Of a stretch of DNA of 39,037 nt, positions 4,053-35,277 are shown one piece after another. Position 1 is the first letter of the stretch. Every line of letters starts with the position of its first letter. Where the stretch lies: UHGV virus genome UHGV-2079062. One strand, written 5' to 3'. Source of the stretch: a virus. The notes under the pieces are model-generated. The model searched no databases and had not been told where the DNA came from. It saw nothing but the letters and a program-made list of their open reading frames with translations. Position numbers and translations under genes: made by a program.

Positions 4053-4055
4053 GGA

Positions 4056-9053: not shown

Positions 9054-9063
9054 ATACACTCCG

Positions 9064-9094
9064 AAAATAAAAAAGCCACCTATTAGAAGGTGGC
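9064..9094 (-). terminator. rho-independent terminator downstream of the tail-module moron
   Basis: Minus-strand stem GCCACC/GGTGGC (9075..9080 / 9089..9094) followed by a T-rich run (9064..9074). Confidence 0.55.
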
Positions 9095-9114
9095 CTTGTA
9101 ATGAATTTTATTAA

Positions 9115-9645
9115 TTAGCGAGTCAGAAACAACGAATCTTTATACTTTTGCTGTTGTTCATTTAAATACTTAGCTGTTTCATCGCTGGCAAATGGAAATA
9201 TTACCGTATTTTTAGGCATGGTAATTTCTTTTTTGTCCAGCGTCAGAGTAAACATAGGAACATACTGAGCAGAGTAACGCACCGCAGAAACGAGCTCTAG
9301 TTTAGACTCTTCAATAACACTTAAATTATCCAGGCTAACTTTCTCTTCATCTTTTTTCTTTGACGCATTTAAAGTTTTTATTACTTTATTTAATTTCTCC
9401 TGAAAATCCTCCTTAAAGTTTTCAGGATTGCCGTCGACAACAAGAATCTGTTCACCCTGATTATCTGGAAAAATAATCTTTGCACTTATCAATTTATTTT
9501 CTTTATAAACATCACCAAGTTTTATGGCTCCTCCAGATAACTGAATAATATGTTCATCTTTAAAGGAGATGTTGCCAGAGATTATGAGAGATGAAAAAAT
9601 AGCCGCTGCTCCAAGAATTACACTTGCTGTGATATAGCCTTTCAT
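9115..9645 (-). CDS. hypothetical secreted or membrane-anchored protein (moron inserted in tail module)
   Basis: 176-aa ORF in a markedly AT-rich segment; N-terminal hydrophobic signal/anchor (MKGYITASVILGAAAIFSSLIISG); lysine-rich; no counterpart in Mu-type tail synteny; flanked by its own promoter-like and terminator sequences. Confidence 0.6.
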   Translation of the reverse strand: MKGYITASVILGAAAIFSSLIISGNISFKDEHIIQLSGGAIKLGDVYKENKLISAKIIFPDNQGEQILVVDGNPENFKEDFQEKLNKVIKTLNASKKKDEEKVSLDNLSVIEESKLELVSAVRYSAQYVPMFTLTLDKKEITMPKNTVIFPFASDETAKYLNEQQQKYKDSLFLTR

Positions 9646-9680
9646 TTTTCGCCTATTAACATTTTTCTAAATGTGCATTA

Positions 9681-9708
9681 ATTCTATCACTCTATTTATG
9701 ACTTACAA
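9681..9708 (-). promoter_or_regulatory. candidate sigma70 promoter for the moron (TTGTAA-N16-TAGAAT)
   Basis: Minus-strand -35 TTGTAA (9708..9703) and -10 TAGAAT (9686..9681), about 35 nt upstream of the moron ATG; by eye only. Confidence 0.35.
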
Positions 9709-9736
9709 CCAGCAATACATGTGAGGGGAATCCTGG

Positions 9737-11569: not shown

Positions 11570-11710
11570 GTGTGCGTTTCTCCTGCTCTATCCTGTTTGC
11601 CTGACTGACCAGCAAGGGAATTTCACTGATCGGCATATTCAGCAATTCGAAGGGATTAATGCGCCAGTAGCTGGCGCAGTCAAAGAAGCGATCAGTGAGG
11701 TATTCAGCCG

Positions 11711-11980
11711 TCAGGCCTGGAGGAAAAAACCAGCCACAAGCCACGCCGCTGCATTCAGGTCTGCCGGAGACATCTGGTCGACAGAGCTTTGCGGCACTTT
11801 CGCCAGCCGCACAATGTATTTCGACACCACATGCGCCAGAAGTCTGACGGACTCATCCTGATTCATCTGGTAGGGATACCCCAGCTCGCGGACATCCTTC
11901 CCGGTGGGTTCATCAAACTCCAGTACGGAGAGTGTCTCACCATGAGCGATAATCGGTTTCTTTAACTCAAGCTCTTTCAT
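11711..11980 (-). CDS. phage tail assembly chaperone (G-like); -1 frame extension runs to 11562
   Basis: 89-aa ORF between tube and tape measure genes; an overlapping -1 frame ORF (11562..11744) begins at a TTTTTTC slippery heptamer (forward 11723..11729) and ends at the tape measure start. Confidence 0.6.
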   Translation of the reverse strand: MKELELKKPIIAHGETLSVLEFDEPTGKDVRELGYPYQMNQDESVRLLAHVVSKYIVRLAKVPQSSVDQMSPADLNAAAWLVAGFFLQA

Positions 11981-12336
11981 TACTGGTAATCCCCTTCTTC
12001 ACCGTGGAACTCAAGATCAACCGTGCCTTCTTCGGCATTATGGTTCGCTTCTCCGTGCAGCCAGGCGGACGACAATACATAGACCTGACCGTTCGCCAGC
12101 TCGGCAGTGATGGTCATCTCATCAGACGAGGTGATTTTGCTCACCGGAAAATTCTTCGGCACCTTGAAGGTCCCTTTGACATAAGGCGCACGGTGAGTTT
12201 CCTTGCGGTCCACTGAACCGTCCAGGCCGATGATGTCATCATTGACCGTCCTGTTCATGGGCACCTCAATGCCGCCGGTCAGCGATAGCTGCTGACCGTC
12301 AATTTTGAAATAACAGGTTCCCCCGATACGGGCCAT
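11980..12336 (-). CDS. phage major tail tube protein (Mu gp40-like)
   Basis: 118-aa ORF immediately downstream of the sheath gene with ATGA overlap. Confidence 0.75.
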   Translation of the reverse strand: MARIGGTCYFKIDGQQLSLTGGIEVPMNRTVNDDIIGLDGSVDRKETHRAPYVKGTFKVPKNFPVSKITSSDEMTITAELANGQVYVLSSAWLHGEANHNAEEGTVDLEFHGEEGDYQ

Positions 12337-13832
12337 TATGCAGACTCCTCTGAATACTGAAGACGGAACTGGTTAACCACGGCAAAAACACGCAACTGGT
12401 TAACATAGTCAGGCGGGAACAGCGTGTTCAGGCGGTTCGGATCGCTGGCATCACGCTCCACAACCAGGTACTGCTTAAACAGTTCGTAGTTTTCCACGAT
12501 CCCCGCACGCTCAAGCTGACGGTAGGTTGCCAGCAGTTCCCCTTTGATTACCGCCGGGGTGACAATCGCCTGACCGGGACCAAAGCGGGTACCGTCGCTG
12601 GCAAGCTTGTGACGCCCGTACTTACTGGTAATGACGGATTTCAGTTTGCGCAGTACATACGCACTGGTATGCAGCGTCTCGCTGTCGAGGTAGCTGTTAT
12701 CCGCAACCCCGTAAGCATTTTTCCTGTACGTGGTGACATCACGCTGAATGCGCAGCACCCCGCTTTCGACATACGCCGTTGCCACGCCATGAGACAGCAG
12801 GGTCTGCTGCTCGGTCATCGTGAACCGTTTCCCCTTCGGCGCAGGCAGCATACCCACCAGCTCACCGGTCTGCGTGGGACGTGCCGGATCGTTGCGGATA
12901 AACACCGCTGCGCGGGCGGTACGGCTTGCCGCCAGCTCGTCGGCAGGCGTCTGGGTGTCTTTTTCGTACCCCGCCAGGGTAATGTGCTGCTGGTTAAACT
13001 GGTCACCTGCGGTCACCAGTTCTGACAGCGTGCCGATCTTTGCCGTATACACATGACCATACAGCTGACGCGCATAGCTCCAGCGACCGCTGGTATCGTT
13101 CATCTCGGTCACCAGCGTGTTAACGGAGGCCGTGTCGTTGAACGGCAGGCCGATATAATCAAACGGCTCATCCGCCATTGCAGCCACCGCGCCGGTGAGA
13201 ACAGGAGCGCCCGTTCCGGCGTTCCCCGTCGCCACGGCAATCTGTACGCCCGCTGGCAGCACTTCGCCCCCACCGAAGCCGTAGTAATTGAGGCTGACAG
13301 GAATTTCATTCCCGCAAAGCCCCTTATGGCGAGCGGTCAGTGTAACCACACCAGCCGAAGATGAGGCCGTAAACGGCAGGGCCGGAACGGCATTGATGGC
13401 ATCTTTGATACTGCTGGCAATCGTCGCGACGTTATCGCCGTTGGTCACCGGTGCCTGCACGCGGGTACGTCCCACATAAACATTCACCGTGCCGGTTTCG
13501 GTTGCTGCCCCGGTCACCGTCAGCGTAACTGTTGCCGCCGCGCCTGTGGATTCAGGAACGGCAATCACATACAGCTCGCCAAACGGGTCAGTCTGGCGAT
13601 AAGCCTCGACCATACGCGCCAGCTGACTTCCCGCACCACAAATCTGGCGTGCATAGTCTGCCGACGGCATCAGTACCAGACTGTTGGCAACAATCTCTGC
13701 ACCGTTATTGGCATGACCAATCAGCAGCGATGCTCCGCTGTCCTGTGCAGTATTCGCCGCCTGGTTATCCATTTCCGCATAAAACAACGGAACCAGCGTA
13801 TTCGACGGAATGGTGTTAAAGCTTATCGTCAT
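12336..13832 (-). CDS. phage tail sheath protein (Mu L / gp39-like)
   Basis: 498-aa ORF, size and position typical of contractile tail sheath. Confidence 0.85.
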   Translation of the reverse strand: MTISFNTIPSNTLVPLFYAEMDNQAANTAQDSGASLLIGHANNGAEIVANSLVLMPSADYARQICGAGSQLARMVEAYRQTDPFGELYVIAVPESTGAAATVTLTVTGAATETGTVNVYVGRTRVQAPVTNGDNVATIASSIKDAINAVPALPFTASSSAGVVTLTARHKGLCGNEIPVSLNYYGFGGGEVLPAGVQIAVATGNAGTGAPVLTGAVAAMADEPFDYIGLPFNDTASVNTLVTEMNDTSGRWSYARQLYGHVYTAKIGTLSELVTAGDQFNQQHITLAGYEKDTQTPADELAASRTARAAVFIRNDPARPTQTGELVGMLPAPKGKRFTMTEQQTLLSHGVATAYVESGVLRIQRDVTTYRKNAYGVADNSYLDSETLHTSAYVLRKLKSVITSKYGRHKLASDGTRFGPGQAIVTPAVIKGELLATYRQLERAGIVENYELFKQYLVVERDASDPNRLNTLFPPDYVNQLRVFAVVNQFRLQYSEESA

Positions 13833-13986
13833 CGGTGTTCACCTTTTTATTCACGCGCCGGATATCACCCGCGGCTTCACGGCGCAGCCAGTAGTTGTTC
13901 TCGTCAACATTTCGCCCTTCGGCGGGCAAAAGGTCGCCGCGGGCAGGGTCAGGCACTGACCGCCCTTTAACAGGTTTCACAAACAT
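13816..13986 (-). CDS. small phage protein (DUF2635-like) upstream of sheath gene
   Basis: 56-aa ORF (MFVKPVKGRSVPDPARGDLLPAEGRNVDENNYWLRREAAGDIRRVNKKVNTDDDKL) translated by hand; too short for the ORF track; overlaps the sheath start by 17 nt. Confidence 0.45.
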   Translation of the reverse strand: MFVKPVKGRSVPDPARGDLLPAEGRNVDENNYWLRREAAGDIRRVNKKVNTDDDKL

Positions 13987-13994
13987 GATGATTC

Positions 13995-14555
13995 TCAGGA
14001 AGGAAGGGTTATTTCGGTGTGATGTTCGATATCGCCGTCAGGCCCGTTACCGGGATCGAGATAATCAACATCAATCGCCAGCGTTCGCAGTTCATCCAGA
14101 CTGTTCAGGTCATCCTGCTGGCGGGTATCGTCTTCAGTCAGCTCGCTGATGACCGAAAAATCGAACTGATAAATCAGCTCATGACGATTCAGATCCAGCA
14201 GCGTACCGCCGTCATAGGTAATCGGGTTACCGCACGCTTCCGGGTTCCAGCCCAGCAGAGCCTTAAAGAGCATCTGCCGGACATCGTCCACCACATCATA
14301 CGAGGCAAACTGACCGCGCTCATCACGCCCGTTACTCAGTATGACAACCACGGAGAAGCCCTCTTTCAGCTCCTGCCAGTAGTCGGTCTGGCTTTTGTTT
14401 TCTCCCGGAGAGTCATCACCCGGTACCACATATGCCGCCGGGAGCTTCAGCTTTCCGACCTCCGGCAGATTTTTGAACTGGGCCGCGCCTGCAACCCGGT
14501 TTTCAAAATACGGACAGCGGGCACGCAGTGCAGCAATAACAGGCGTCAGTTTCAT
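13995..14555 (-). CDS. Mu gp37-like phage protein (DUF1834 family), tail completion region
   Basis: 186-aa ORF in head-tail joining region; assignment by synteny and recalled family. Confidence 0.5.
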   Translation of the reverse strand: MKLTPVIAALRARCPYFENRVAGAAQFKNLPEVGKLKLPAAYVVPGDDSPGENKSQTDYWQELKEGFSVVVILSNGRDERGQFASYDVVDDVRQMLFKALLGWNPEACGNPITYDGGTLLDLNRHELIYQFDFSVISELTEDDTRQQDDLNSLDELRTLAIDVDYLDPGNGPDGDIEHHTEITLPS

Positions 14556-15058
14556 CTGTGTCGTCGCTCCGGCTTCAGTGATTTACGCAATTCCCGCGCC
14601 AGAAAATAGCGTGTCCAGCTGCGGTTCTTTTCAAGAGTTTCCACCATGAAGTTATTACGTGGAGCCAGTCGCCAGCCGCTGCCACCGGATGCACCACGAT
14701 GATGGCTGCGACGACGCTTTGCCCCTCGCCTCACGCCATAGAACAAAAAAGCCGGATAAAAATCACCGGTGATACGGCGATTTCCCTCTCCATTACGCTG
14801 GTTAGGGGCTATACGTGCCATAAAACCAGGGCGATGTTTACTGGCTCTGGGTACCATGTAACCAATCGAACGAGCCAGGCGTCCGGTCTGATAACCGGGG
14901 TTTTCACCCGGTGCCGACCGCGCACGGCGCATCACCAGCCGACGGGCATCACGCATATGACGCTGACCAATCGTGACAAACGCCCGCCGGACACGGGCGC
15001 GGTTAAAGCGCATCTCCGCGGGCTGCTGAAAATCAACGTGCAAAAAGGAAGTCGTCAT
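14552..15058 (-). CDS. phage virion morphogenesis / tail completion protein (Mu G or HK97 gp10-like)
   Basis: 168-aa strongly basic ORF overlapping neighbours by 4 and 26 nt. Confidence 0.5.
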   Translation of the reverse strand: MTTSFLHVDFQQPAEMRFNRARVRRAFVTIGQRHMRDARRLVMRRARSAPGENPGYQTGRLARSIGYMVPRASKHRPGFMARIAPNQRNGEGNRRITGDFYPAFLFYGVRRGAKRRRSHHRGASGGSGWRLAPRNNFMVETLEKNRSWTRYFLARELRKSLKPERRHR

Positions 15059-15443
15059 TGTTGCCTCCGTGACTCTGCCTACATTCGCCCAGCTCCGTAC
15101 ACTCCAGCAGCAGAAAGCGCCGCGCCCCGTTCAGATCACGCTGACGTTTCACCCGATACACACTGTCATCACAGACCACCTCATAATCAGCAGTGATCCC
15201 CCGGCGGTAGCGAATGGTGATGTAATGGGTGATGGCGTCTCCGATCTGCGCGGTTTCCTGCCAGGTGGTGGCACTGGTCTGGATAACCTTCGCCCATGCC
15301 CGGAACGCAACCGGGTATTGAGGCTCCACGCCAAAGTTATCCGCGGGCATATCCACCCGCTGGCGGATCAGGACGCGTTTATTCAGCTCGCCTGGGTCAG
15401 GCAGAATGTAGGTTGCGCTGGTCTGCGCCTGACGAATTTTCAT
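15033..15443 (-). CDS. head-tail adaptor / head closure protein
   Basis: 136-aa ORF between connector and morphogenesis genes. Confidence 0.5.
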   Translation of the reverse strand: MKIRQAQTSATYILPDPGELNKRVLIRQRVDMPADNFGVEPQYPVAFRAWAKVIQTSATTWQETAQIGDAITHYITIRYRRGITADYEVVCDDSVYRVKRQRDLNGARRFLLLECTELGECRQSHGGNNDDFLFAR

Positions 15444-15763
15444 TGCGGAAAGTACCTGTACGGGCCGACAAGCCAGCCAAAACTCTGCGGCATGTCGAGT
15501 TTCTCCACTTCCGTAACCGACGAGCGGTTTTCGTAAAAATGGCTGATAAGCATCAGCATCCCCAGACGAATATCATCCGGCAGGTGCAGCCCGTCCGGAT
15601 CGCTGTCCGGAATGGTTTTATCCGGTGCATAGAGCTTCCGGTTCAGATACGTTTCCGTCCGCTTTTGTGCCGCACAGGCCAGCAGTTGCAGATGGCGGTC
15701 ATCAGCATCGAAATCCTCATCCAGCCGGAGTTGGGCTTTAATCTCTTCCATTGTCAGAAGCAT
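15440..15763 (-). CDS. phage head-tail connector protein (gp6-like)
   Basis: 107-aa acidic ORF immediately after the capsid region. Confidence 0.55.
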   Translation of the reverse strand: MLLTMEEIKAQLRLDEDFDADDRHLQLLACAAQKRTETYLNRKLYAPDKTIPDSDPDGLHLPDDIRLGMLMLISHFYENRSSVTEVEKLDMPQSFGWLVGPYRYFPQ

Positions 15764-15765
15764 AC

Positions 15766-15966
15766 TCAGCCCTCTTTACTGGTCGTGGCTTTTTTCTCTT
15801 TTGCCGCTTTACTGCTTTTTGCACTGATTCCGCGCTCTGCTAACCCGGCCTGAAGTGCAATCTCCTGCACCCGGGCAGGAAGCGCCCCGTCGTCATACTC
15901 ACCGGCCCGAATGACCTCAACACGCATACCGTCCGGTGACCATTTCAGATCTTGTTTCAGTATCAT
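15766..15966 (-). CDS. small hypothetical head-module protein
   Basis: 66-aa ORF between major capsid and connector genes; Lys-rich C-terminus; function unknown. Confidence 0.35.
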   Translation of the reverse strand: MILKQDLKWSPDGMRVEVIRAGEYDDGALPARVQEIALQAGLAERGISAKSSKAAKEKKATTSKEG

Positions 15967-16015
15967 GATTCTTCACCCGTCAAAACAGGGGGCGCGGTTC
16001 CGCGCCCCTGAATGA

Positions 16016-17221
16016 TTACGCCGCTGCAATCTTCAGCAGTTTGATGGCCTGCGAATCGACCAGCATCCCGCCGGTGCGCTTGGTGGTATAAAAACCGACA
16101 AACGGTTTATTGGTGTACGGGTCACGCAGAATGCGGGTGCCGATACGGTCAACGATGGTGTAACCCCGTTTGAAGTTACCAAATGCAATGGCTTTCGCAT
16201 CAGCGGCGATATCCGGCATCTGTTCGTTTTCAGCGATACCGTAACCCGCCAGAGAGGACGGCTGCCCCAGTTCCAGCCCTGGACGCCACAGATAGTTACC
16301 CTCGCTGTCTTTAAGCAGACGGATGGCAAACAGGCTGTTGTTGTTCATCATGAACTTCGCGCCAGTGCGGTGTGCCTTACGCAGCGTGTAAATCAGTTTG
16401 ATAATGGCGTCTGCGGTCACCGCGGTCGCTTCGCCGGATACAATATGCTGAAGTTTGCCGAACGCCCGGACCTTGTCGGTTTCATCAGTGGATTCATACG
16501 CCAGGAACCCTTTCGGCTTCTTGGTGCCATCGCCTGAGGTAAAGGCAATTTCTTCCTGTTCGGCAAATTCGGTTGCCAGCTCGCTGTTGATCCATGCCTC
16601 CACGTTGAAGAAGGCATCGTCCAGCATTTTCTGGGTAGCCTGCGGGTTGCCGTAGATTTCCCCCATGAGAGGTTCAATCAGCTCCAGTCTGGAGGTGGCA
16701 GTCTGGGATCGCGCGTCAGTCTCGCCAACCCATCCGGAAGCCGTACCGCCCAGATTCACCAGTTTTTTGTAGTCGGAGCCGCCAACGGTGATCACCGTGG
16801 CTTCCTGACGCATCACCACTTCATCTTTCAGCAGGTTAAGAATGTTGCGATCCAGTTCTTCCGGCACGGCGTAGCCACCGTCTTCATCGGTGCCCACCTG
16901 CAATGCCTTACGCTCCAGATCGCGCAGACCGTCTTCACGGCCTTTACGCAGGAAGCCCACAAACGCCTCTTTATGCTCGGTGGCCAGTTTATTTTGCGCT
17001 CCACCTGCCGGACGTTTCAGCTCAAGCAGCTCTTTTTCAAGGTCGCTTTTGAGATTTTCCAGCTCGCTGAGTTTCCCGTTCAGGGTTTCCACCTGCCCGG
17101 CAAGCTTGCCTTTTTCCTGCTCAATCGCATCCACGCGCTTGTCGTTCTTTGCTTTGAAGTCGTCAAACTTCTGCTGCAGCTCCTGCGCGACCTGTTCGAC
17201 ATCTTTAATATCAACCGCCAT
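16016..17221 (-). CDS. HK97-family major capsid protein
   Basis: 401-aa ORF with coiled-coil-like N-terminal delta/scaffold domain followed by HK97-fold capsid region; follows prohead protease. Confidence 0.9.
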   Translation of the reverse strand: MAVDIKDVEQVAQELQQKFDDFKAKNDKRVDAIEQEKGKLAGQVETLNGKLSELENLKSDLEKELLELKRPAGGAQNKLATEHKEAFVGFLRKGREDGLRDLERKALQVGTDEDGGYAVPEELDRNILNLLKDEVVMRQEATVITVGGSDYKKLVNLGGTASGWVGETDARSQTATSRLELIEPLMGEIYGNPQATQKMLDDAFFNVEAWINSELATEFAEQEEIAFTSGDGTKKPKGFLAYESTDETDKVRAFGKLQHIVSGEATAVTADAIIKLIYTLRKAHRTGAKFMMNNNSLFAIRLLKDSEGNYLWRPGLELGQPSSLAGYGIAENEQMPDIAADAKAIAFGNFKRGYTIVDRIGTRILRDPYTNKPFVGFYTTKRTGGMLVDSQAIKLLKIAAA

Positions 17222-17235
17222 CGTATTTCTCCTGA

Positions 17236-17922
17236 TTAGAAGTTCAGATTTTTCAGTGCATTCAGTGCAGAGCTCACATCCTCAGCGTCGCGCAGGGACA
17301 GTGCGCCATAGCCCCCGGCCATGAATGCTTTGGCCTGGGTACGGGAGAGTCCGACATCACGCAGGACTCTTTCGATTTTTTTCTGTTCGGGGATTTCCCC
17401 GCGGGCCAGCGCGTTCTTGACGTCGCTGATCCGCGCCTCGTCGTTAGACGGGAACGTCACCAGACTGACTTCCCAGAGGTCGATTTCTTTCAGCAGAAAG
17501 GCTTCTTTCGTCCGGTCGTATTCCCAGTCTTTCAGGACGTACCCAATAGAAAGGCCGGTTAACGAACCGGCCTTCATGTGTGCATGTGCGCGTTTTGCGA
17601 GGGGATCATCATCAATAAGCAACCGTCCCCTGACGTAAAGCCCGACATCGTCTTCCTTCATTTCGGTGTAAACACCGATGGGTTCATCCATGCGGTGCTG
17701 CCAGAGCAGCGCAGGTAACGCTTTTCTGTCACTCCACGCCCGCAGGGAAGCGGCAAATGCCCCTGACATCACCACATCATCGTGGCTGTCCTTTACACCA
17801 AAGACGGAGCCATACCCTTCAAACTCACCGGAGTCACTGACAGATTTCAGACTCAGCGGTACATCAAGACGTTGTTTCGTCTGCATTGGCGTTATCCTTC
17901 TGCTTACCGGCTTTACTGCCAT
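17236..17922 (-). CDS. HK97-family prohead protease
   Basis: 228-aa ORF between portal and capsid genes; overlaps portal end. Confidence 0.85.
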   Translation of the reverse strand: MAVKPVSRRITPMQTKQRLDVPLSLKSVSDSGEFEGYGSVFGVKDSHDDVVMSGAFAASLRAWSDRKALPALLWQHRMDEPIGVYTEMKEDDVGLYVRGRLLIDDDPLAKRAHAHMKAGSLTGLSIGYVLKDWEYDRTKEAFLLKEIDLWEVSLVTFPSNDEARISDVKNALARGEIPEQKKIERVLRDVGLSRTQAKAFMAGGYGALSLRDAEDVSSALNALKNLNF

Positions 17923-19105
17923 CGGAGGGTTTCGTGGTCATGTTCATCGGTGTGAGATAGACATCACCACCGGGACGCGGATTCATATCTTCCAGGTCGC
18001 GGCAGTCATTGGGAGAGTAAATTCCCCAATTGATCCCGGTAGCGTAGGCTTCAAAACGGGACTTCATATCCCCACGCAGTAAGGCCCCGGCGTTAAATTT
18101 GGCGTAATAAACGCCCTGCTTACTTTTTCGTACCAGTCCGGTGTTGATCCGCTGCTCAATGCGGGTCAGATACGGCACCAGTGAATAGTTGATAAATCCC
18201 AGCCCCAGCTCTTCGATATTGTTGAAGGTGGCGCGATCGGTGTTCTGCACCATGTGCAATGGCACCCGGAACAGACGACAGATTTCTTCAAGCTGAAACT
18301 TGCGGGTTTCCAGGAACTGGCTGTCCTCGGCGTTCAGCGCCATCGACTTCCAGTCCAGCCCCATCTCAAGGATCATCGGGCGGTGAGCATTGCCAAGCCC
18401 GGTGTGACGCTCCTCAAAATCTTTCTTCAGGCGCTCATAAGCCTGATCTGACAGCGTCTGCTCTGTACGCAACACACCCGACGTCACCGCGCCATTGCTG
18501 AACAGTCTGGCCCCGTGCTCTTCGGTCGCTGCCGCCAGCGATATTGCCTCGCGGGCATAGGCGATGGGATTCAGCCCCACCAGTCCGTCCAGCGTCAGCG
18601 TGCGCACATGCCAGATATCTTCCTGGCTCAGTACATCCGTGGAGCCATCCGGGAATGTGACCTGATAGACCGGCTCCCAGCTACTGTTAAGCTTCGGTAC
18701 CACACAGCCGGGATCGACGGGCAGCAGTTCAGCCACTTCGCCAAATGCTTTCACTTTGTAGGCGTAAAAGTTTCCCCGCAGGCACAGACAGGTGACCACC
18801 AGCTCCCAGAACTCCTGCGGCGTCATATAGCCATTGGGATGCGTGGAGATCAGCTTATGCAGACGTTCGCCAGTGGCTCTCTGCTTCAGGCTGCCGTTCA
18901 GGTGATACAGGTTGCAGGGCAACATCCCGACCGACTCCGCCAGCACCCTGACACAGGAAAAAACCGCCGTCAGTCGCATGGCCCGCTGGCTGCTGATCTG
19001 CTTTCCGGTATAGGTGTCGTAGGACAACCCGATAGCCTCCGCCAGCTCTGCTGGCGTGGTCACCGGTGCGTCACTTTTTCGTTGAAATAATCCCGAAAAG
19101 AACAC
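17864..19105 (-). CDS. phage portal protein (HK97 family)
   Basis: 413-aa ORF downstream of the terminase. Confidence 0.9.
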   Translation of the reverse strand: MFFSGLFQRKSDAPVTTPAELAEAIGLSYDTYTGKQISSQRAMRLTAVFSCVRVLAESVGMLPCNLYHLNGSLKQRATGERLHKLISTHPNGYMTPQEFWELVVTCLCLRGNFYAYKVKAFGEVAELLPVDPGCVVPKLNSSWEPVYQVTFPDGSTDVLSQEDIWHVRTLTLDGLVGLNPIAYAREAISLAAATEEHGARLFSNGAVTSGVLRTEQTLSDQAYERLKKDFEERHTGLGNAHRPMILEMGLDWKSMALNAEDSQFLETRKFQLEEICRLFRVPLHMVQNTDRATFNNIEELGLGFINYSLVPYLTRIEQRINTGLVRKSKQGVYYAKFNAGALLRGDMKSRFEAYATGINWGIYSPNDCRDLEDMNPRPGGDVYLTPMNMTTKPSDGSKAGKQKDNANADETTS

Positions 19106-19287
19106 TATTTACCTCCGCCGACAGACGACTGTGTACGGTCGAGATATCGCGCCACCAGCCACGACCAGAACAGGCACAACGCCCCGGCAACAACAAACCC
19201 CGCCGGGGGATAAATCAGCCAGGCACCATACGCCAGCAAAAGCGCCCCCAGCACGCCCACCAGAGGCGCGAGAATCAGCATGATCAT
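19105..19287 (-). CDS. small hydrophobic protein (two predicted TM helices) between terL and portal
   Basis: 60-aa ORF with GAGGT ribosome-binding site 7 nt upstream; stop overlaps portal start. Confidence 0.4.
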
Positions 19288-19298
19288 AATTACCTCAG

Positions 19299-21027
19299 TT
19301 AAAGCGAGCGGATCCCATAGGACTCAATGTGGTCAGACAGCGTGTCTTCTTTCCCGTACAGCATGGCTCTGCCAACCGCCATAATCAGCGCCACTGCACC
19401 ATCGATTTTGTTTTCCGCCTGCTCTTTGACGGGCTTCACCACATCATCGTTACCCGGAATGGTTTTGCCGACCACGTTGCCGATACACCAGGTCATGATG
19501 GGATTGCCATCATGATGAAAGCGCCCCGATTCAATTGCCGCTTCCAGCTCTTTCATCGGGTCGGACATGTTGGTGTAGTTCTGAATGATAGTGATGGGGT
19601 TCAGGTCTTCATCAGCAAGGTCATGTGACAACCCGGTCGCCCCGAAGGGGTCGATGGGTGACTCACTGACCGGGCTGATTTTGTTCGCCGCTTTGGCCTC
19701 CTCGAGGATGTAGCGATAATCCACCTCCGCACCATCGGTAACGGTCAGAACGCCCATTTCCACCCATTTCTGAAAGCGTTCGGCTGTCCGGCGATCTTCA
19801 TTTTTCTCGACGCTATACACCGTGTCATACGGTACCCAGAAACGCGGGGCCACACTGTAGTAATGCGTTTTACCGTCAATCTCGCGGGTATAAAGTCGCG
19901 CCATGCTGTTCATATCCAGCTTACGCGCCAGGTCAAAGGCCAGAATGCACGGCTGCCCCTCGAACTGCTCAAGAGTCAGTGATTTATCCTCGCAGCTCTG
20001 CCAGCTCACCAGGTTGAAATACGCCGAACGCGCCGACACCCAGATATTGAGGTGTTTTGTTTTAAAGACGTTTGCCAGACGGGCGTTATTTTTCGCACGC
20101 TGCTGCTGACTTAACAAAAATTCGCGATAAACCGACACGCCAATATTTGGATTGGCTTTTTCCAGCACCTGCGGGTCGGTCCAGTCGTCACCTTCATCAA
20201 CGGTATAGATGATCCCGAACAGTTCATCGTTAGGCACCGAGCCGTTGAGCATCTCGATGACTTCCCGCCGTTTGTCGTAGCACGGCCCCTCAATGTTGTA
20301 CCCGGCGGTGGTGATGGCCCACATCAGTGGCTGACGTCGCGCCCCCATCCCGGTAAGCATTGTGGTATAAAGCGCATCGGTGGCATGCTCGTGATATTCA
20401 TCAACCACGGCACAGTGGGGTGATGAACCATCACCTGGGTTGCCGATCAGCGGTTCAAACCGCGCGCCATCCTCCGGACGGTTCATGTTTGAGGCGTTAA
20501 CCTCAATCCCGAACGCTTCCGTCAGCATGGGTGTGCGTTTACACATCAGTCGCGCCGGGCGAAAGACTTCCCACGCCTGTTTCTCTGTCGTGGCACCGGA
20601 ATACACTTCCGCGCCAAACTCGTTATCACAGGCAAAACAATACAGGGCGACACCGGCAGAGATTGCCGATTTGCCGTTCTTACGGGGGATTTCGGTATAC
20701 ACGGAAGCGGCGCAGCCGGGAGCCTTTATTGACCCAGCCAAACGCACAGCAGATCACAAAGAGCTGCCACGGTTCCAGCGTGATGGGCATCCTCTTGAAT
20801 GCCCACTCCCCCTTGGTGTGTGGCAACAGCTGAATAAATTTCGCGGCCCGTTCAGCCAGGTCCTTGTCGAAGCGGTAACGAAACGACTTACTTTTTTCCG
20901 CCATCAGGTCATCAAGATGGCGCTGGCAGGCCTGAATCACAAACTGGCAGGCCACAATCTTTCCGCGCACGACATCACGGGCATACTGATTGGCAGCATT
21001 TACGTTGGGGTAAGATTTCCGGCTCAT
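19299..21027 (-). pseudogene. terminase large subunit, apparently frameshifted (N-terminal 20680..21027 and C-terminal 19299..20747 in different frames)
   Basis: N-terminal ORF ends ...[19 protein letters not shown] while the +1 frame continues ...[12 protein letters not shown] (Walker A) and the rest of TerL; frame switch localised to about 20690..20705. Confidence 0.75.
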
Positions 21028-21527
21028 GATTCGATGATTTTCAGAAACGGGTTAGTGGCTTTCTTCTGCCCCGCCAGGCCAATCAGACGCTGGCGGCTGC
21101 TGGGGTCGAGTCCGAGCATTGCCCCCGTGCTGCTCATCTCGGACTCCTGTTCTTTCTTGGCGGTCAGCTCCGGATTTTTGACCATACCGCCCATTGCACC
21201 GGTGATGGTGTTGCCCTGTCTGGCAATATTTTTCACGGCACGTCGCCAGAACTCATAGGCCACGCACCACCGCTCAAGTACCGCTAGGTCAGTCACGCAC
21301 AGCAGGCCCTGACCGCAGAGTTCTTTGGTTGTCAGTTGCCACATGATCGTGGCGAGAGGGAGATCCTCTTCAGCGAACCACTCCGGTGGCTCAACACCTT
21401 TGATGGGCGTAAAAACAGGTTCATCTTTGTTCAGGGCTCGCTTGCCGGGGTTTCCGGACAGCGCCTTGCGCGCCGTTGGCTTGGGGCGACGCCCGGAACG
21501 CCCCGCCGTTCCAGCCATATGCGGCAC
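21024..21527 (-). CDS. phage terminase small subunit (P27 family)
   Basis: 167-aa ORF immediately upstream of terL with ATGA overlap; basic N-terminus. Confidence 0.8.
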
Positions 21528-21643
21528 TCCTGGTTAAATTTCATTTTTCGCGGGTATAAAAAAACGATGGGGCGGGCAGTCCGGAAGACGTCAGGCCGCA
21601 GGGATTTGACCCGCCCCTCCCCTCAGGCAGTTGAGAATCATTA

Positions 21644-21994
21644 TCACTTCAACCGTTCACGGGCCGTCTTCGCCTTATGACACGGCCAGCACAGACTCTG
21701 CAGATTACAGTCGGCATCAGTGCCGCCATGCGCTTTAGGGATGATGTGGTCAACAGTTTTCGCCTCACGCACCACACCAGCACGCAGACATAACTGACAC
21801 AGGCCTTTGTCACGCTTCAGAATGCGCGTACGTATAACATCCCACTTAGAACCATAACCACGCTGATGACGGGACTGTCCTGGCTTGTATTGCTTCCAGC
21901 CTTCGCTTTTGTGGCTTTCGCAATAACCTGACGGGTCAGTGGTGGTATGGCGGCAGCCGCGAACACGGCAGGCTTTTGGGGTTCGTGGGGGCAT
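21644..21994 (-). CDS. HNH endonuclease (packaging-associated)
   Basis: 116-aa ORF with Cys-rich zinc-finger and H-N-H motifs (DHIIPKAHGG...N...CWPCH); directly upstream of terS as in HK97-like cos phages. Confidence 0.85.
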   Translation of the reverse strand: MPPRTPKACRVRGCRHTTTDPSGYCESHKSEGWKQYKPGQSRHQRGYGSKWDVIRTRILKRDKGLCQLCLRAGVVREAKTVDHIIPKAHGGTDADCNLQSLCWPCHKAKTARERLK

Positions 21995-30514: not shown

Positions 30515-30814
30515 TCAGAATTCCATCTGGATTTGATTAGAACGCTCGGTCTTGCACACCGGGCGTTTTTTATTGGTGATTTCATCAAGCGCATACTTAA
30601 AAGCTCTGCTAATCGGACTGATGTCTGATGCCATGCCAAAAGCACACAAGACCGAAGCTATAAACCTCCAGTCTGTTCTGCTTATCTTCGATTCATGACA
30701 GCCAATCATCTTTGCCAGACCGCGCTGAGTAAGCGTTGACAGGTTGATAAGTAAATCTGTTTCTGCGCGATCAACGTCGCGCTGTGATAGTTTGCTGTAA
30801 TTTGTTTGTTCCAT
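30515..30814 (-). CDS. cII: CII-like transcriptional activator
   Basis: 99-aa ORF with HTH and C-terminus ...TNKKRPVCKTERSNQIQMEF resembling lambda CII; between cro and O. Confidence 0.8.
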   Translation of the reverse strand: MEQTNYSKLSQRDVDRAETDLLINLSTLTQRGLAKMIGCHESKISRTDWRFIASVLCAFGMASDISPISRAFKYALDEITNKKRPVCKTERSNQIQMEF

Positions 30815-30920
30815 TTCTTACTATTTCCATAGGTAAATAATCACTAATACGCATCTTTCGATGAGTTCTTAATTAGTTACCGCGTTGTCGGCGGTGCAGA
30901 TTGATAAAGAGCGGTGTTAC

Positions 30921-31148
30921 TTATGCTGCCAGAAGGTTCTTTTTGCTTATTTCAAGCATTTCGCTTGCTTGATATTTGCCACCAGAAATCTCTTCGATTT
31001 TTGATGCGTATTTCGTTTTCCCAAAAAACTCAGTCTTAGGGAGGAAGCCGTTTTTGAGCCACTTATAGACAGCCCTTTCGCTAACTCCACAAGCCTTCGC
31101 AACTTCAGGGATGCCGACACCTTTAATCGGCTCATCAAGATTTTGCAT
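30921..31148 (-). CDS. cro: Cro-like repressor (HTH)
   Basis: 75-aa ORF from ATG 31148 with AAGGA ribosome-binding site; HTH motif GIPEVAKACGVSERAVYKWLKNG; divergent from cI. Confidence 0.7.
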   Translation of the reverse strand: MQNLDEPIKGVGIPEVAKACGVSERAVYKWLKNGFLPKTEFFGKTKYASKIEEISGGKYQASEMLEISKKNLLAA

Positions 31149-31226
31149 AGGAATGTCCTTTTTCGTACTTTCAGTACGCATTATGGTTGAACTGAAAGTT
31201 TTTGCAAGTGCTTTAGTATCGTACTC
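31149..31226. promoter_or_regulatory. cI-cro divergent operator/promoter region (OR with PR and PRM)
   Basis: 78-bp divergent intergenic region containing palindrome CGTACTTTCAGTACG (31164..31178), its inverted core ACTGAAAGT (31191..31199) and AGTATCGTACT; cI has no Shine-Dalgarno, consistent with a leaderless PRM transcript. Confidence 0.5.
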
Positions 31227-31934
31227 ATGGTTCAGAATGAAAAAGTGCGCAAAGAATTCGCCCAGCGGCTAGCGCAAGCCTGTAAAGAAGCTGGTCTTGA
31301 TGAACATGGTAGGGGAATGGCCATAGCCCGTGCCCTTTCTCTTTCGTCCAAAGGCGTTAGCAAATGGTTTAATGCTGAGTCTTTACCACGCCAGGAAAAA
31401 ATGAATGCGCTTGCGAAATTTCTAAACGTTGATGTTATTTGGCTTCAGCACGGCACTTCGTTAAATGGAGCGAATGATGAAGATACTTTTTCAATTGTTG
31501 GCAAATTAAAAAAAGGGTTAGTGCGCGTGGTTGGTGAGGCAATTCTTGGTGTTGATGGTGCCATCGAGATGACCGAAGAGCGCGATGGGTGGCTCAAGAT
31601 TTATAGCGATGATCCAGATGCCTTTGGTCTTCGTGTAAAAGGAGACAGCATGTGGCCCAGAATAAAATCAGGAGAATATGTACTCATTGAGCCTAACACC
31701 AAAGTATTCCCAGGTGATGAGGTGTTTGTCAGAACCATTGAAGGGCACAACATGATCAAGGTTCTTGGCTATGACAGAGACGGAGAATACCAATTTACAA
31801 GCATCAACCAAGACCACAGGCCAATAACGTTGCCTTATCATCAAGTAGCAAAGGTGGAGTATGTAGCTGGTATTCTGAAGCAATCTCGCCACCTAGATGA
31901 CATCGAGGCCAGGGAATGGCTGAAAAGTTCATGA
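31227..31934 (+). CDS. cI: CI-type prophage repressor (HTH plus S24 LexA-like peptidase domain)
   Basis: 235-aa ORF with N-terminal HTH and C-terminal autocleavage domain (GDSMWP serine motif, conserved Lys region). Confidence 0.85.
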   Translation: MVQNEKVRKEFAQRLAQACKEAGLDEHGRGMAIARALSLSSKGVSKWFNAESLPRQEKMNALAKFLNVDVIWLQHGTSLNGANDEDTFSIVGKLKKGLVRVVGEAILGVDGAIEMTEERDGWLKIYSDDPDAFGLRVKGDSMWPRIKSGEYVLIEPNTKVFPGDEVFVRTIEGHNMIKVLGYDRDGEYQFTSINQDHRPITLPYHQVAKVEYVAGILKQSRHLDDIEAREWLKSS

Positions 31935-32063
31935 CTTCATCATCACATAGCTAGTAACCAGTACGTTTGGATGGTGGTGAGAAACACACTGCAAGCAAAC
32001 AGAAACATGGATATTAAAATATTAGCTTAACACAGCAAATCGAAAGAAACAGCGAGGGCTCGG

Positions 32064-32963
32064 ATGTCCCAAGAATTATCTTTAACCTTTACCGAAAACA
32101 TATATTATTCAACTAAAGAACCTGTAAGCATCAAAGATGTGATTACCTCCCTTCAAGGGTGGGAGGCCATCGCAAAACAATCAGAAGGTGTTTTGCAGGA
32201 ACTGACAGGGGCTAATATCCTTGATATATCGGTGCATGTTGCGCGATTAGAAGCAGGAAGCCTTTATGAAGATATTGTTATTAAACTCCTCTTTGGTAGC
32301 CAAGAAGAAATGGACAAGTTTCTTGCTGGCGCTCATGCAAAGATCGGAAATGGGAAAATGAGAAACGCTCTCGTTGGTGCTGTTGTTATTGGTCTGGTTG
32401 GATATGGCTTAGTTCTAGCAACTAAGGCTATGGCTCCAAGCAACACCTCCCACTTTGAAGCAAATAACAATACAATCATCAATATTGGTGCCGGTGAGGC
32501 TAATATTTCACCTGACCGTCTTCAAGCAATCATAGAAAGCACGGTAACCAATAAGAAGACTCTTGCCAAAAGTTCCATTAAGACGCTTGCCCCAGCTAGG
32601 GCAGACGAAGGATCTACGATGGTCATAGGTACAGGGGGTGGTACAGTGACCATTCCCGCTGAAACCATTAAAAAAGCCCCAACTGAAGTTGTCTTCACAC
32701 CAGAGTCATATACTCAGGATCATTTTGATGTTGATGTTGAAATCCGTGCATTAGACCTCGACAATCCAGAGAAAGGTTGGGCTGCTGTTATCCCTGGATT
32801 AATAGATCGAAGAGTAAATATGGTTCTTGGCCCCAACGTAAACCCATCAGATTTTGCAGGTAAATTTGCTGTACGTGCTGATATAACAATAACGTACCAG
32901 CTCAAATCATCAGATAAAAAATACCAACCGAAAGAAGTCTTTATAAAAGAAATAATCAAATAA
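32064..32963 (+). CDS. hypothetical 299-aa single-pass membrane protein in the cI-N (rex) slot; candidate lysogen-expressed exclusion/defence gene
   Basis: AT-rich ORF with GAGGG ribosome-binding site; central hydrophobic helix (MRNALVGAVVIGLVGYGLVLATKAMA); followed by a terminator; no resemblance to recalled RexA/RexB. Confidence 0.6.
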   Translation: MSQELSLTFTENIYYSTKEPVSIKDVITSLQGWEAIAKQSEGVLQELTGANILDISVHVARLEAGSLYEDIVIKLLFGSQEEMDKFLAGAHAKIGNGKMRNALVGAVVIGLVGYGLVLATKAMAPSNTSHFEANNNTIINIGAGEANISPDRLQAIIESTVTNKKTLAKSSIKTLAPARADEGSTMVIGTGGGTVTIPAETIKKAPTEVVFTPESYTQDHFDVDVEIRALDLDNPEKGWAAVIPGLIDRRVNMVLGPNVNPSDFAGKFAVRADITITYQLKSSDKKYQPKEVFIKEIIK

Positions 32964-32969
32964 TTATAC

Positions 32970-32995
32970 CCGGCCTCAGCGCCGGTTTTTCTTTT
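32970..32995 (+). terminator. rho-independent terminator after the 299-aa gene
   Basis: CCGGC-ctcagc-GCCGG stem followed by TTTTTCTTTT. Confidence 0.5.
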
Positions 32996-33253
32996 CCTCA
33001 CGATCGTCTACCTTATTTAACATCCGCACATGTGCTAACCCACGAACTAACACGCCAGCAAACAATTCTTTCTCTCCTACTGACCAATCTTCAATCTTTA
33101 CAAAAATAAACTCCTTTACATATCAAAAACATATCCCATTAAGTTAATGAACCACAAACAATTCGTACTTATAGTTCTTGATAATATCGAACTATTGGTT
33201 CATTATCATCACCATCAGCAGGACGCTGGCAGCCAAACGGAACAGATTGGCAG

Positions 33254-33287
33254 GCTCTTTAACTTCGATGATGCGCTGACAAAGCGC
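33254..33287 (+). promoter_or_regulatory. nutL site: boxA-like GCTCTTTAA and boxB hairpin GCGCTGACAAAGCGC
   Basis: boxA-like at 33254..33262 and 5-bp stem/GACAA loop hairpin at 33273..33287 (P22-type boxB), about 120 nt upstream of N. Confidence 0.6.
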
Positions 33288-33405
33288 GAACAGATACCAA
33301 ACGAGATGGGTTTGGGGTGATGTGAATTGCAGCAGTAACGACAGCAACCAGAAGATCAGCATCTGGCGCATCACCACCAAAGCCATTTCACATGAGGAAA
33401 ACATC

Positions 33406-33714
33406 ATGACGGTAATCGTGTACGGAAAATCAACATTTGCAGGAAATGCCAAAACTCGCCGTCATGAGCGGCGCAGAAAGCTGGCCATCGAGCGTGATTC
33501 CATCTGCAACATCATCGATTCGATCTTCGGCACAGACAGTGAGGAACCTGTTCAGGAAGACCCGAGAAAGCGGTTAAGCCTTTCTGAAAAAGCAATATCA
33601 CTCGGAAGCCTTCGCTGCAAGAAAGTAGATGAATGCAGTGGAAGTGTTTGCCTGCCAAACGTAGCTATTTACGCGGCAGGCTACCGGAAATCAAAACAAC
33701 TGACGGCGAGATGA
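33406..33714 (+). CDS. N: N-type transcription antiterminator (P22 gp24-like arginine-rich motif)
   Basis: 102-aa ORF MTVIVYGKSTFAGNAKTRRHERRRKLAIER... with GAGGA ribosome-binding site; arginine-rich boxB-binding peptide at N-terminus. Confidence 0.8.
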   Translation: MTVIVYGKSTFAGNAKTRRHERRRKLAIERDSICNIIDSIFGTDSEEPVQEDPRKRLSLSEKAISLGSLRCKKVDECSGSVCLPNVAIYAAGYRKSKQLTAR

Positions 33715-33730
33715 TAAATTCATTTGCTAA

Positions 33731-34312
33731 TTACTTGTTTTTGCCATGCTTATCCTGAGCGATAAGTTCATCCATAAGGCTGTCTGCCTTCCCGGCAAAC
33801 CGAATGTAGCACTCATGTCTATAGCTTTCAGGAATAACAAAACGGTCGGTATCAGGATATCCAACAGCAGGAGGCCTTCGAACGAGGAGTCCTTTTTTGA
33901 GCAATGAAATTGATTCATGAGCTCCCTTTTCCGTTTGTAGCTGGTTATTAGCGGCTACAGCGAATGCCAAATACGCTCTTTCTCCAAGAGTTAATGAATC
34001 AAACAAATCTTGCACATATTTTTCTTCTTTAGATTTTCGCTTCTGAGCAGCGGATACCTCAATTCTTTCAGTCACAGCGTGATAAGCGGAATTAACAACG
34101 CCGTTAAGCACATAGCTAACGCAAAACAACAGGATGTAATACATCCAGTAATGAGGAAGGATTTCTGGATTATGCAGGTTTATCCATTCTTTTACGCTTA
34201 CCGGCATAACAATAATCAATATGATCAGGATGATTAGCATATGAATCAACTGTTTAAGTGTCATTCCTTGCAGGAAAAAATGCATTAGTTCCTGCCACCA
34301 TGAGTTGTTCAT
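33731..34312 (-). CDS. sieB: superinfection exclusion protein B (SieB-like), membrane protein
   Basis: 193-aa ORF with N-terminal TM helices, opposite strand between N and ral as in lambda/Rac. Confidence 0.65.
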   Translation of the reverse strand: MNNSWWQELMHFFLQGMTLKQLIHMLIILIILIIVMPVSVKEWINLHNPEILPHYWMYYILLFCVSYVLNGVVNSAYHAVTERIEVSAAQKRKSKEEKYVQDLFDSLTLGERAYLAFAVAANNQLQTEKGAHESISLLKKGLLVRRPPAVGYPDTDRFVIPESYRHECYIRFAGKADSLMDELIAQDKHGKNK

Positions 34313-34455: not shown

Positions 34456-34542
34456 ATGGAAGAAGAATTTGAAGAGTTCGAAGAGCATCCTCAGGATGTG
34501 ATGGAACAATACCAGGACTATCCGTATGACTACGACTATTGA
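34456..34542 (+). CDS. small acidic protein (lambda orf28-like)
   Basis: 28-aa ORF MEEEFEEFEEHPQDVMEQYQDYPYDYDY with AAGGTG ribosome-binding site; overlaps ral start. Confidence 0.45.
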   Translation: MEEEFEEFEEHPQDVMEQYQDYPYDYDY

Positions 34543-34726
34543 TAAAAATCAATGGTGTGGACAATTCAAGCGATGTAATGGATGCAAGCTGCAATCGGAA
34601 TGCATGGTTAAGCCTGAAGAAATGTTTCCTGTAATGGAAGATGGGAAATATGTCGATAAATGGGCAATACGAACGACGGCAATGATTGCCAGAGAACTTG
34701 ACAAACAGAACAACAAAGCTGCCTGA
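34526..34726 (+). CDS. ral: restriction alleviation protein Ral
   Basis: 66-aa ORF MTTTIDKNQWCGQFKRCNGCKLQSEC... with Cys cluster; matches recalled lambda Ral. Confidence 0.8.
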   Translation: MTTTIDKNQWCGQFKRCNGCKLQSECMVKPEEMFPVMEDGKYVDKWAIRTTAMIARELDKQNNKAA

Positions 34727-34908: not shown

Positions 34909-35277
34909 ATGTCAAACATCAAAAAATACATCATTGATTACGACTGGAAAGCATCAATAGAAATTGAAATCGACCATGACGTAATGACAGAGGAAAAACT
35001 TCACCAGATTAATAATTTCTGGTCAGACTCTGAATACCGACTCAATAAACACGGCTCTTTATTAAATGCTGTATTAATCATGCTGGCGCAACATGCTCTG
35101 CTTATAGCAATTTCGAAAGACTTAAATGCATATGGTGTTGTTTGTGAGTTCGACTGGGATGATGGAAATGGTCAGGAAGGATGGCCTCCAATGGATGGAG
35201 GTGAAGGAATAAGAATTACCGATATCGATACATCAGGAATATTTGATTCAGATGATATGACTATCAAGGCCGTCTGA
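34909..35277 (+). CDS. ea10: Ea10-like protein
   Basis: 122-aa acidic ORF with GAGGA ribosome-binding site; resembles recalled lambda Ea10. Confidence 0.7.
   Translation: MSNIKKYIIDYDWKASIEIEIDHDVMTEEKLHQINNFWSDSEYRLNKHGSLLNAVLIMLAQHALLIAISKDLNAYGVVCEFDWDDGNGQEGWPPMDGGEGIRITDIDTSGIFDSDDMTIKAV

Follow-up and report, generated by a model that had tools for sequence, protein, structure and literature searches.

A one-gene cassette behind cI of a 933W-immunity prophage encodes a predicted bitopic membrane protein that may act in superinfection exclusion

The gene behind cI and its transcription signals

The virus genome UHGV-2079062 comprises 39,037 nucleotides, and this whole stretch is referred to here as the window. 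Directly downstream of its cI repressor gene, and on the same strand, lies an open reading frame (ORF) that encodes a protein of 299 residues (WP_000076839.1; phrog_4506). The original prediction had proposed that this gene occupies the slot used by lambda for rexAB and that it could be a new prophage exclusion gene; here the gene, its surroundings, its product and its relatives are described, and the possible functions of the protein are weighed. The features of the region are the following, with coordinates of the window:

31164..31234, no strand: OR region (transferred from the 933W annotation)
31164-31178: oR1, palindrome CGTACTTTCAGTACG
31188-31202: oR2 (transferred from the 933W annotation)
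31220-31234: oR3 (transferred from the 933W annotation)
31207-31180, minus strand: promoter pR (933W transfer and promoter scan)
31192-31219, plus strand: promoter pM, or PRM (933W transfer; the promoter scan gave no match here)
31227..31934, plus strand: cI repressor, 235 aa, of the 933W immunity type (Peptidase_S24 and HTH_3; PHROG 4)
31935..32063, plus strand: spacer between cI and the ORF, which holds the left cassette junction and the ribosome-binding site
32054-32058, plus strand: ribosome-binding site GAGGG, 5 nt upstream of the ATG of the ORF
32064..32963, plus strand: ORF of 299 aa, with an ATG start
32970..32995, plus strand: intrinsic terminator, with a stem at 32970-32985 that has five G-C pairs, followed by TTTTTCTTTT
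33145..33206, plus strand: putative OL operators and promoter pL (TTGATA-17-CATTAT, 33178-33206, promoter scan)
33254-33263, plus strand: nutL boxA GCTCTTTAAC, read from the sequence
33273-33287, plus strand: nutL boxB GCGCTGACAAAGCGC, read from the sequence
33406..33714, plus strand: N antiterminator with a P22-type arginine-rich motif (Pfam N_peptide, 4.9e-41)

The order of these elements, that is, the ORF behind cI with its ribosome-binding site, its terminator, and then pL, nutL and N, agrees in coordinates and signals with the original prediction, and the position matches the rexAB-equivalent slot of the cI operon in the layouts of both lambda and 933W. The cI product was recognised by Pfam Peptidase_S24 (3.5e-16), as well as by HTH_3, and by PHROG 4, annotated as 'transcriptional repressor' (1.1e-48). 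The stop codon of cI is separated by 129 nt from the start of the ORF, and the stem of the terminator begins six bases past the stop codon of the latter; the terminator folds with -9.1 kcal/mol and a z value of -2.3 against shuffled sequences. Further downstream, an inverted repeat (TAATGAACCA/TGGTTCATTA) flanks the pL region, which was read, by inference, as the OL operators; the boxB element is one that we take to be of the P22 type.

The segment that includes OR and cI (31149-31962) is 96.8% identical at the DNA level to phage 933W (AF125520.1), and many Shiga toxin (Stx)-converting phages are equally close. The order in the 933W record is oR1-3, pR, pM, cI, L0084, L0083, stk, L0081, tM, nutL and N, where tM is labelled 'putative terminator for pM transcript'; according to this annotation the maintenance transcript is formed by pM-cI-L0084-L0083-stk-L0081-tM. 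The positions of oR1-3, pR and pM in the window were obtained by transfer from this annotated record. When the 933W annotation is transferred in this way, the 299-aa gene fills the interval from cI to the terminator equivalent to tM, and the terminator at 32970..32995 can be regarded, as judged from the sequence, as the positional counterpart of tM.

No sigma-70-like site was detected by the promoter scan on the plus strand of the spacer between cI and the ORF. Since the ORF is without a promoter of its own, it is most likely that in the lysogen it is transcribed together with cI from pM. For the interval between cI and N, transcription from the promoter of the repressor has been presumed (PMC8585504). 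No Rfam element was found in the region 30800-33800. Likewise, no notable repeat was seen at the start of the ORF, although the sequence definition of the aba element of BstA is not transferable to an unrelated gene.

The guanine-plus-cytosine (GC) content of the ORF is 0.413, below the value of 0.507 for the window, and from this low value the original prediction had suggested horizontal acquisition. Other stretches are similarly poor in GC, i.e., cI (0.452), cro (0.425), sieB (0.405) and the segment 34313-35600 (0.410). Given that the neighbouring backbone genes have comparably low values, the AT-richness is a property of the whole immunity and early-left region and not of the ORF, and the idea that low GC marks the ORF as foreign was rejected; the acquisition itself is better argued from the junctions described below.

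Cargo exchanged at the same junctions

The region 31149-33714 was searched against 5,426 complete E. coli genomes. The whole arrangement was present at >=99% identity in 150 of them (~3%), and in another 587 records the best place showed 95-99% identity; the rows that were sampled from these corresponded mostly to the cI part alone. Four alternative loci were retrieved and their cargo was scanned for known families, with the following result (coordinates are those of each locus):

L036, E. coli OkiPb01707: one gene of 300 aa, BstA (PADLOC, 4.1e-106)
L035, 2435-3945: HipA_2 kinase and DUF3037 protein, PDC-M66A/B (PADLOC candidate)
L037, 4847-6923: DUF3024 protein (PDC-S43), an unknown gene, a Ser/Thr kinase (PD-T4-6/mad6-like) and a small ORF, which together are the 933W stk cassette
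L038: two small unknown genes, with no family match

The repressor encoded next to the HipA_2 and DUF3037 genes is the identical protein WP_000250470, and those next to BstA and the stk cassette are the near-identical WP_000250473; in L038 the homology to cI is limited to its C-terminal part. The kinase of the 933W-type allele was recognised by Pkinase with 2.3e-46, and the DUF3024 gene heads this cassette. Comparison by blastn placed the left junction at 31952-31962, which is 18-28 nt past the stop codon of cI, and the right one at 32953-32969, where the ORF ends or the terminator starts. Since the prophages that carry other genes match again from this right junction onwards, the terminator belongs to the backbone and not to the cargo. 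The approximately 1 kb between both junctions is thus exchangeable cargo.

Among the allelic partners of the 299-aa gene, BstA and stk are validated defence genes, and PDC-M66 and PDC-S43 are candidates for this function. This bears out the view, put forward in the original prediction, that the slot next to cI is a hotspot for such genes, as BstA, the HipA_2 and DUF3037 pair, and the stk cassette were all found behind the same cI. The interval between cI and N had already been described as a mosaic hotspot, occupied by rexAB in lambda and by bstA in BTP1 (Owen et al. 2021, PMC8585504). The HipA_2/DUF3037 and DUF3024 cargos are, for their part, uncharacterised candidates located within a validated hotspot.

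The cassette, here approximately 32002-32997, i.e., with 40-60 nt upstream of the ORF and with the terminator, was also found behind unrelated repressors in two other genera, with a DNA identity of 95% in Edwardsiella hoshinae and 90% in Kluyvera ascorbata. These comparisons show that the cassette has moved horizontally; no direct or inverted repeats that would hint at site-specific insertion were found flanking it.

The rest of the genome is also of mixed ancestry. In the regulatory region (31149-33714), cI, cro and OR are of the 933W type (96.8%), and the boxB of nutL and the arginine-rich motif of N (GNAKTRRHERRRKLAIER) are of the P22 type. The virion module (3755-21994) is ~97.5% identical to that of myoviruses of the SfI/SfII type, which have a tail sheath. 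The immunity region with its cassette is present as well in the lambda-like Jouyvirus 1H12 and in the 'Lambda_ev' phages; since the same immunity region and cassette are joined to lambda-like modules in 1H12 and to SfI/SfII-like modules here, the early region is shuffled among virion types. Other annotations in this part of the window are the following:

33192-33407, minus strand: hypothetical protein of 71 aa (WP_032145726.1, 'FIG00644188'; RefSeq/RAST), antisense to pL and nutL and probably a spurious call
33731..34312, minus strand: adjoining sieB gene (Pfam SieB, 2.5e-22)
34526-34726: homologue of the Ral antirestriction protein, named through the RefSeq annotation of an identical prophage
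34909-35277: DUF2528 gene, named in the same way

A widespread family with a predicted trans-envelope architecture

The 299-aa protein matched phrog_4506 (PHROGs v4, 'unknown function') with an E value of 1.9e-170, its residues 1-299 aligning with positions 1-300 of a profile of 300. No Pfam, NCBIfam or PADLOC family was found above threshold, and PADLOC gave no match at E values up to 1; the best Pfam match was DUF1206, with 16.9 bits, under its cut-off of 26.2 bits. At E values up to 0.1 the PHROG matches were to PHROGs of unknown function only, and no described superinfection exclusion (Sie) family, such as SieA, gp15, Sim or Imm, was among them. PDB sequences yielded no relative, whether the protein itself or the profile served as the query, and no catalytic motif, of a nuclease or of any other enzyme, was recognised in the protein. 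A word-indexed protein search with the family alignment added no named relatives, all public copies are labelled 'hypothetical protein', and nothing on this gene was found in the literature under its accession, its PHROG identifier or the names of the phages. It follows from the library, PDB and literature searches that no characterised family, of defence or of any other kind, includes this gene, as the original prediction had anticipated, and that it has no characterised relative by sequence or fold; the comparison was made with the 2023 version of PADLOC, and the newest defence catalogues and AFDB were outside it, so that a recent description under another name is possible. Exclusion cassettes that are expressed in the lysogen from the hotspot between cI and N are known as a kind; the novelty lies in this protein family and in how it is built.

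When 1.84 billion representatives were searched with the family profile, 656 clusters were found at E <=1e-3 and 279 at E <=1e-30. Nearly all its members have 290-335 aa and are matched end to end. The ratio of nonsynonymous to synonymous substitution rates (dN/dS) was 0.09, 0.05 and 0.02 in comparisons with copies that show 96%, 92% and 82% DNA identity, respectively; these values and the size of the family rule against the notion that the ORF is not a gene. Constraint acts on all four regions of the protein, and in pairs that are more distant the barrel evolves a little faster. The regions are the following:

Residues 1-97, 32064..32354, plus strand: predicted cytoplasmic alpha/beta domain with the order beta-alpha-beta-beta-alpha (AlphaFold2)
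Residues 102-120 (ALVGAVVIGLVGYGLVLAT), 32367..32423, plus strand: single transmembrane (TM) helix, from hydropathy
Residues 132-146, 32457..32501, plus strand: juxtamembrane motif E-ANNNTIINIGAGE, from alignments
Residues 183-299, 32610..32960, plus strand: predicted periplasmic beta-barrel of a generic OB-like topology

The AlphaFold2 model of the full protein has a mean predicted local distance difference test (pLDDT) of 82.5; when the C-terminal part was modelled by itself, the value was 85.2. In the model, the N-terminal domain is formed by strands at residues 5-16, 54-63 and 67-77, and by helices at 23-48 and 80-89; its net charge is -6. A long helix follows at residues 98-123, in agreement with a Kyte-Doolittle peak of 2.24 at residues 102-120 (the mean for the family is 1.81, and the next best value elsewhere in the protein is 0.93). 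The motif ANNNTIINIGAGE lies on the helix 125-145; all 40 closer homologues share it without change, and the wider family keeps it less strictly. Three short helices connect this helix with the barrel. Thus, the soluble N-terminal domain, the one central TM helix and the C-terminal domain of ~175 aa that had been proposed from the translation are matched by hydropathy and by the AlphaFold2 prediction.

Conservation is evenly spread across the domains in an alignment of 144 sequences with a median identity of 29% to the query. The best-kept positions are L30, G65, S66 and F77 in the N-terminal domain, G115 in the TM helix, where it is 90% conserved, P177, P206, and A229, D231, D233, G238, W239 and R250 in the barrel, of which D231-x-D233 and G238-W239 make up a conserved acidic loop.

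In the 15 residues that flank the TM helix, the 40 homologues have on average 3.4 lysine or arginine residues before it and 0.5 after it, and from this asymmetry, according to the positive-inside rule, an orientation with the N-terminus inside and the C-terminus outside is predicted. The protein would then be a bitopic inner-membrane protein with ~95 residues in the cytoplasm and ~175 in the periplasm. That the barrel could be a cytoplasmic nucleic-acid-binding OB domain was rejected, given the positive-inside rule and its net charge of -2.

The settings in which members of the family are found were examined in 25 loci from a scan of one genome per species and 39 loci from IMG/VR, together with exact look-ups and annotated phages. 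The upstream neighbour was defined as the largest ORF on the same strand that ends <=900 nt upstream, and neighbours were clustered at 80% identity; this gave 46 clusters, of which 38 were scanned after eight candidates had been dropped. Peptidase_S24 was present in 19/38, HTH_3 in 16/38 and Phage_CI_repr in 6/38, and these counts indicate that the family is set behind many different cI-type repressors. The copies linked to a repressor come from Enterobacterales, from several Pseudomonas species, and from the P. aeruginosa phages D14C, U7 and U9, where cI is followed by a 157-aa ORF, then by the homologue, an unknown ORF and a YafO-like gene. Other copies have different settings. In an Accumulibacter prophage the gene directly precedes a Mu-like protease gene, a place that corresponds to the accessory slot for anti-CRISPR genes of Mu-like Pseudomonas phages; in a transposable phage it separates the early genes from the lysis genes; in a Serratia island of the AlpA/AntA/DUF927 type it follows the primase; and a further copy lies in an AlpA/DUF3987/MobA element. 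In a scan of 145 ORFs from 23 loci, integrases were found near family copies in six cases. The family is, in consequence, cargo of many kinds of mobile elements, preferentially behind prophage repressors.

No conserved partner gene was found in Enterobacterales. The Pseudomonas prophages have a conserved ORF of 78-86 aa between the repressor and the homologue (L012:5663-5923, L021:5680-5916), and the 157-aa ORF of D14C, U7 and U9 is at that same place (L039:2950-3423); none of these ORFs gave a Pfam or PADLOC match, and they may be partners or independent morons. Two Nitrosomonas contigs (L026 and L027) carry homologues only a few kb away from ORFs whose N-terminal sequence, with a P-loop motif, resembles Zot-type ATPases when read by eye; this suggests carriage by filamentous prophages too.

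Possible functions of the protein

Several known systems resemble the 299-aa gene in position or in the predicted location of its product. Lambda RexA/RexB share with it the slot downstream of cI, in the same orientation and before the terminator that precedes OL/pL, as well as the predicted membrane association and a presumed status as cargo that the lysogen expresses and the phage can do without. The Rex system, which is characterised by a loss of membrane potential upon infection and the exclusion of T4 rII-type phages, has a cytoplasmic component, RexA, besides RexB. Here there is one gene instead of two, and one TM helix versus four in RexB, and the protein is by prediction mostly periplasmic; BLASTP gave E values of 0.18 for RexA and 39 for RexB, and hhalign of the family profile against RexA a probability of 0.1%. 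Membership in RexAB was rejected considering the single ORF, the one hydrophobic segment and this lack of sequence or profile similarity. BstA, from Salmonella BTP1 and relatives, is also the product of a single gene of ~300 aa located directly behind the prophage repressor and with its own terminator, and the allele of E. coli OkiPb01707 occupies exactly the junctions of the 299-aa gene behind the same cI; however, BstA is a cytoplasmic DNA-associated protein, whereas the 299-aa protein has a TM helix, and membership was discarded (pairwise BLASTP E value of 3.5, and no match to the PADLOC BstA model PDLC02356). Hence, the original statement that the protein does not resemble RexA, RexB or BstA stands after BLASTP, hhalign and PADLOC. 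As regards the 933W stk cassette, the backbone (cI/OR, 96.8%) and the tM equivalent are shared, and the 299-aa gene is its positional replacement, with one gene instead of four (L0084-L0083-stk-L0081); a kinase of the Stk/PD-T4-6 type was rejected in the absence of a Pkinase match.

Entry-blocking proteins, such as P22 SieA (PMC10883804), HK97 gp15, P1 Sim and the lactococcal Sie2009, are envelope proteins encoded by prophages, and presumably act at the point where the genome passes through the envelope. There is no homology with them, the 299-aa protein has an extra conserved cytoplasmic domain, Sie proteins typically have a much narrower distribution and lower conservation than its family, and Sie genes are mostly found outside the cI operon. 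SNIPE (PMC13190303) and a membrane-anchored prophage abortive-infection protein of S. aureus (PMC10127798) are constitutively located in the membrane and stop phages at or soon after entry. Both provide a precedent for a membrane defence made of one protein but have no sequence relation to the 299-aa protein, and SNIPE is a nuclease, whereas no nuclease motif was found here. A TM beta-barrel effector of CBASS or Pycsar (Cap15-like) was rejected, since there was no PADLOC match and no cyclase gene in the neighbourhoods examined.

We consider it fairly probable that the protein has an anti-phage function, or one against mobile genetic elements, of some kind, a proposal that comes from its position among allelic defence genes. 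It is supported by the operon position, the allelic exchange with defence genes, the spread on mobile elements and the purifying selection. In the reading that we favour, a mobile one-gene cargo cassette is inserted between cI and the terminator of the maintenance transcript of a 933W-immunity prophage, and pM would transcribe cI and the cassette in the lysogen. The product would be a bitopic inner-membrane protein with a cytoplasmic domain, one TM helix, and a periplasmic part made of helices and the OB-like barrel, and it would shield the lysogen, and hence the prophage, from superinfecting phages at the envelope. Its likeliest action would be to hamper genome delivery across the periplasm and the inner membrane, that is, superinfection exclusion in which the cell survives. 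Several Sie proteins are membrane-anchored with their bulk outside the cytoplasm, and membrane effectors of the Rex and SieB type have almost no periplasmic part. Because most of the 299-aa protein is predicted to be periplasmic, as in entry-blocking proteins, a block of entry is slightly preferred over abortive infection, and we would give it a probability of roughly 0.35-0.4.

Several points weigh against a block of entry. No characterised defence protein is homologous to the family, which also lacks a PADLOC match; among the neighbours located outside prophage immunity regions PADLOC gave no matches either, and the Pfam and PADLOC scans of these neighbours returned only RecE-like genes and no defence families. 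The topology is derived solely from the positive-inside rule, and the conserved cytoplasmic domain would have no role in a simple entry-block model. Purifying selection is even and strong in all domains, and the family is spread over Gamma-, Beta- and some Deltaproteobacteria; unlike what would be expected for a binder of fast-evolving phage parts, this even constraint and wide spread are easier to explain if the target is a conserved component of the host or if the protein is a self-contained effector. Finally, in prophage P1 of P. putida KT2440, where PP_3897, PP_3898 and a RexAB-like pair come after the repressor PP_3896, deletion of PP_3897 or PP_3898, which may or may not be members of the family, left the sensitivity to two phages unchanged (PMC12894663).

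The self-contained effector leads to the main competitor, an abortive-infection protein that would be the analogue of RexAB in one polypeptide. It would remain idle in the inner membrane until one of its soluble domains senses the infection, and the TM helix and the Asn-rich juxtamembrane segment would then oligomerise, and depolarise or lyse the cell before progeny is formed. Other occupants of the slot do act in this manner, as is the case of rexAB and bstA (PMC8585504). The TM helix is kept beyond the needs of an anchor, with G115 conserved in 90% of the sequences and a small-residue spacing in GLVGYG, the adjoining motif ANNNTIINIGAGE is invariant among the 40 homologues, and stk, another occupant of the slot, acts by abortive infection. 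The uniform selection and the broad taxonomic range would also suit a sensor and effector that acts on a universal target, the membrane. Nevertheless, the protein has a single TM helix and ~60% of it is predicted to be periplasmic, unlike the known membrane effectors of abortive infection; it did not match the PADLOC models of TM effectors, and neither a partner gene nor a self-immunity element was found. On balance we regard this mechanism as unlikely.

Two other roles would not involve defence against phages. The gene could confer a trait on the lysogen, for instance orphan immunity to bacteriocins that act in the periplasm or to contact-dependent toxins, or a modification of the envelope, and simply ride on a highly expressed repressor operon; this seems to us improbable. 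Still less credible, and indeed very improbable, is a role in the life cycle of the phage itself, either in tuning the switch between lysis and lysogeny or in membrane tethering or timing during induction. Co-transcription with the repressor, as suggested by position, and the report that RexA modulates the lambda switch (PMC12894663) speak for it; however, the gene is dispensable, since prophages with the same cI, OR and tM carry other cargo in its place, and the fact that they do without it weakens this idea. Furthermore, the gene is found in elements that lack lambdoid regulation, and a protein that is largely periplasmic is hard to square with the control of a switch.

In its broadest form, the favoured reading would be that of a new and widespread anti-phage system that spans the envelope with a single protein. 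Its OB-like module in the periplasm would sense or block the machinery that delivers the incoming genome, or else a conserved host factor required by that machinery, and the TM helix would couple this module to the conserved cytoplasmic domain. Across Proteobacteria, the system would be a plug-in cassette of integrative elements and satellites as well as of lambdoid and Mu-like phages. We put this forward only tentatively, as it is rather doubtful that all its parts hold together. Swap experiments and comparisons of defence spectra should be straightforward, because near-isogenic 933W-immunity regions carry the 299-aa gene, BstA, the stk cassette or the HipA_2/DUF3037 pair at the same junctions. 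If the protein does act in defence or exclusion, the known repertoire would gain a family of ~650 clusters, unlinked to the systems described so far and unusual for its bitopic build, in which domains on either side of the membrane are conserved. Its carriers are ~3% of the complete E. coli genomes (150/5426) and inducible coliphages of the infant gut, and such a function would be relevant to the host range of phages used in therapy and to the competition between prophages, including the Stx phages of the same immunity.

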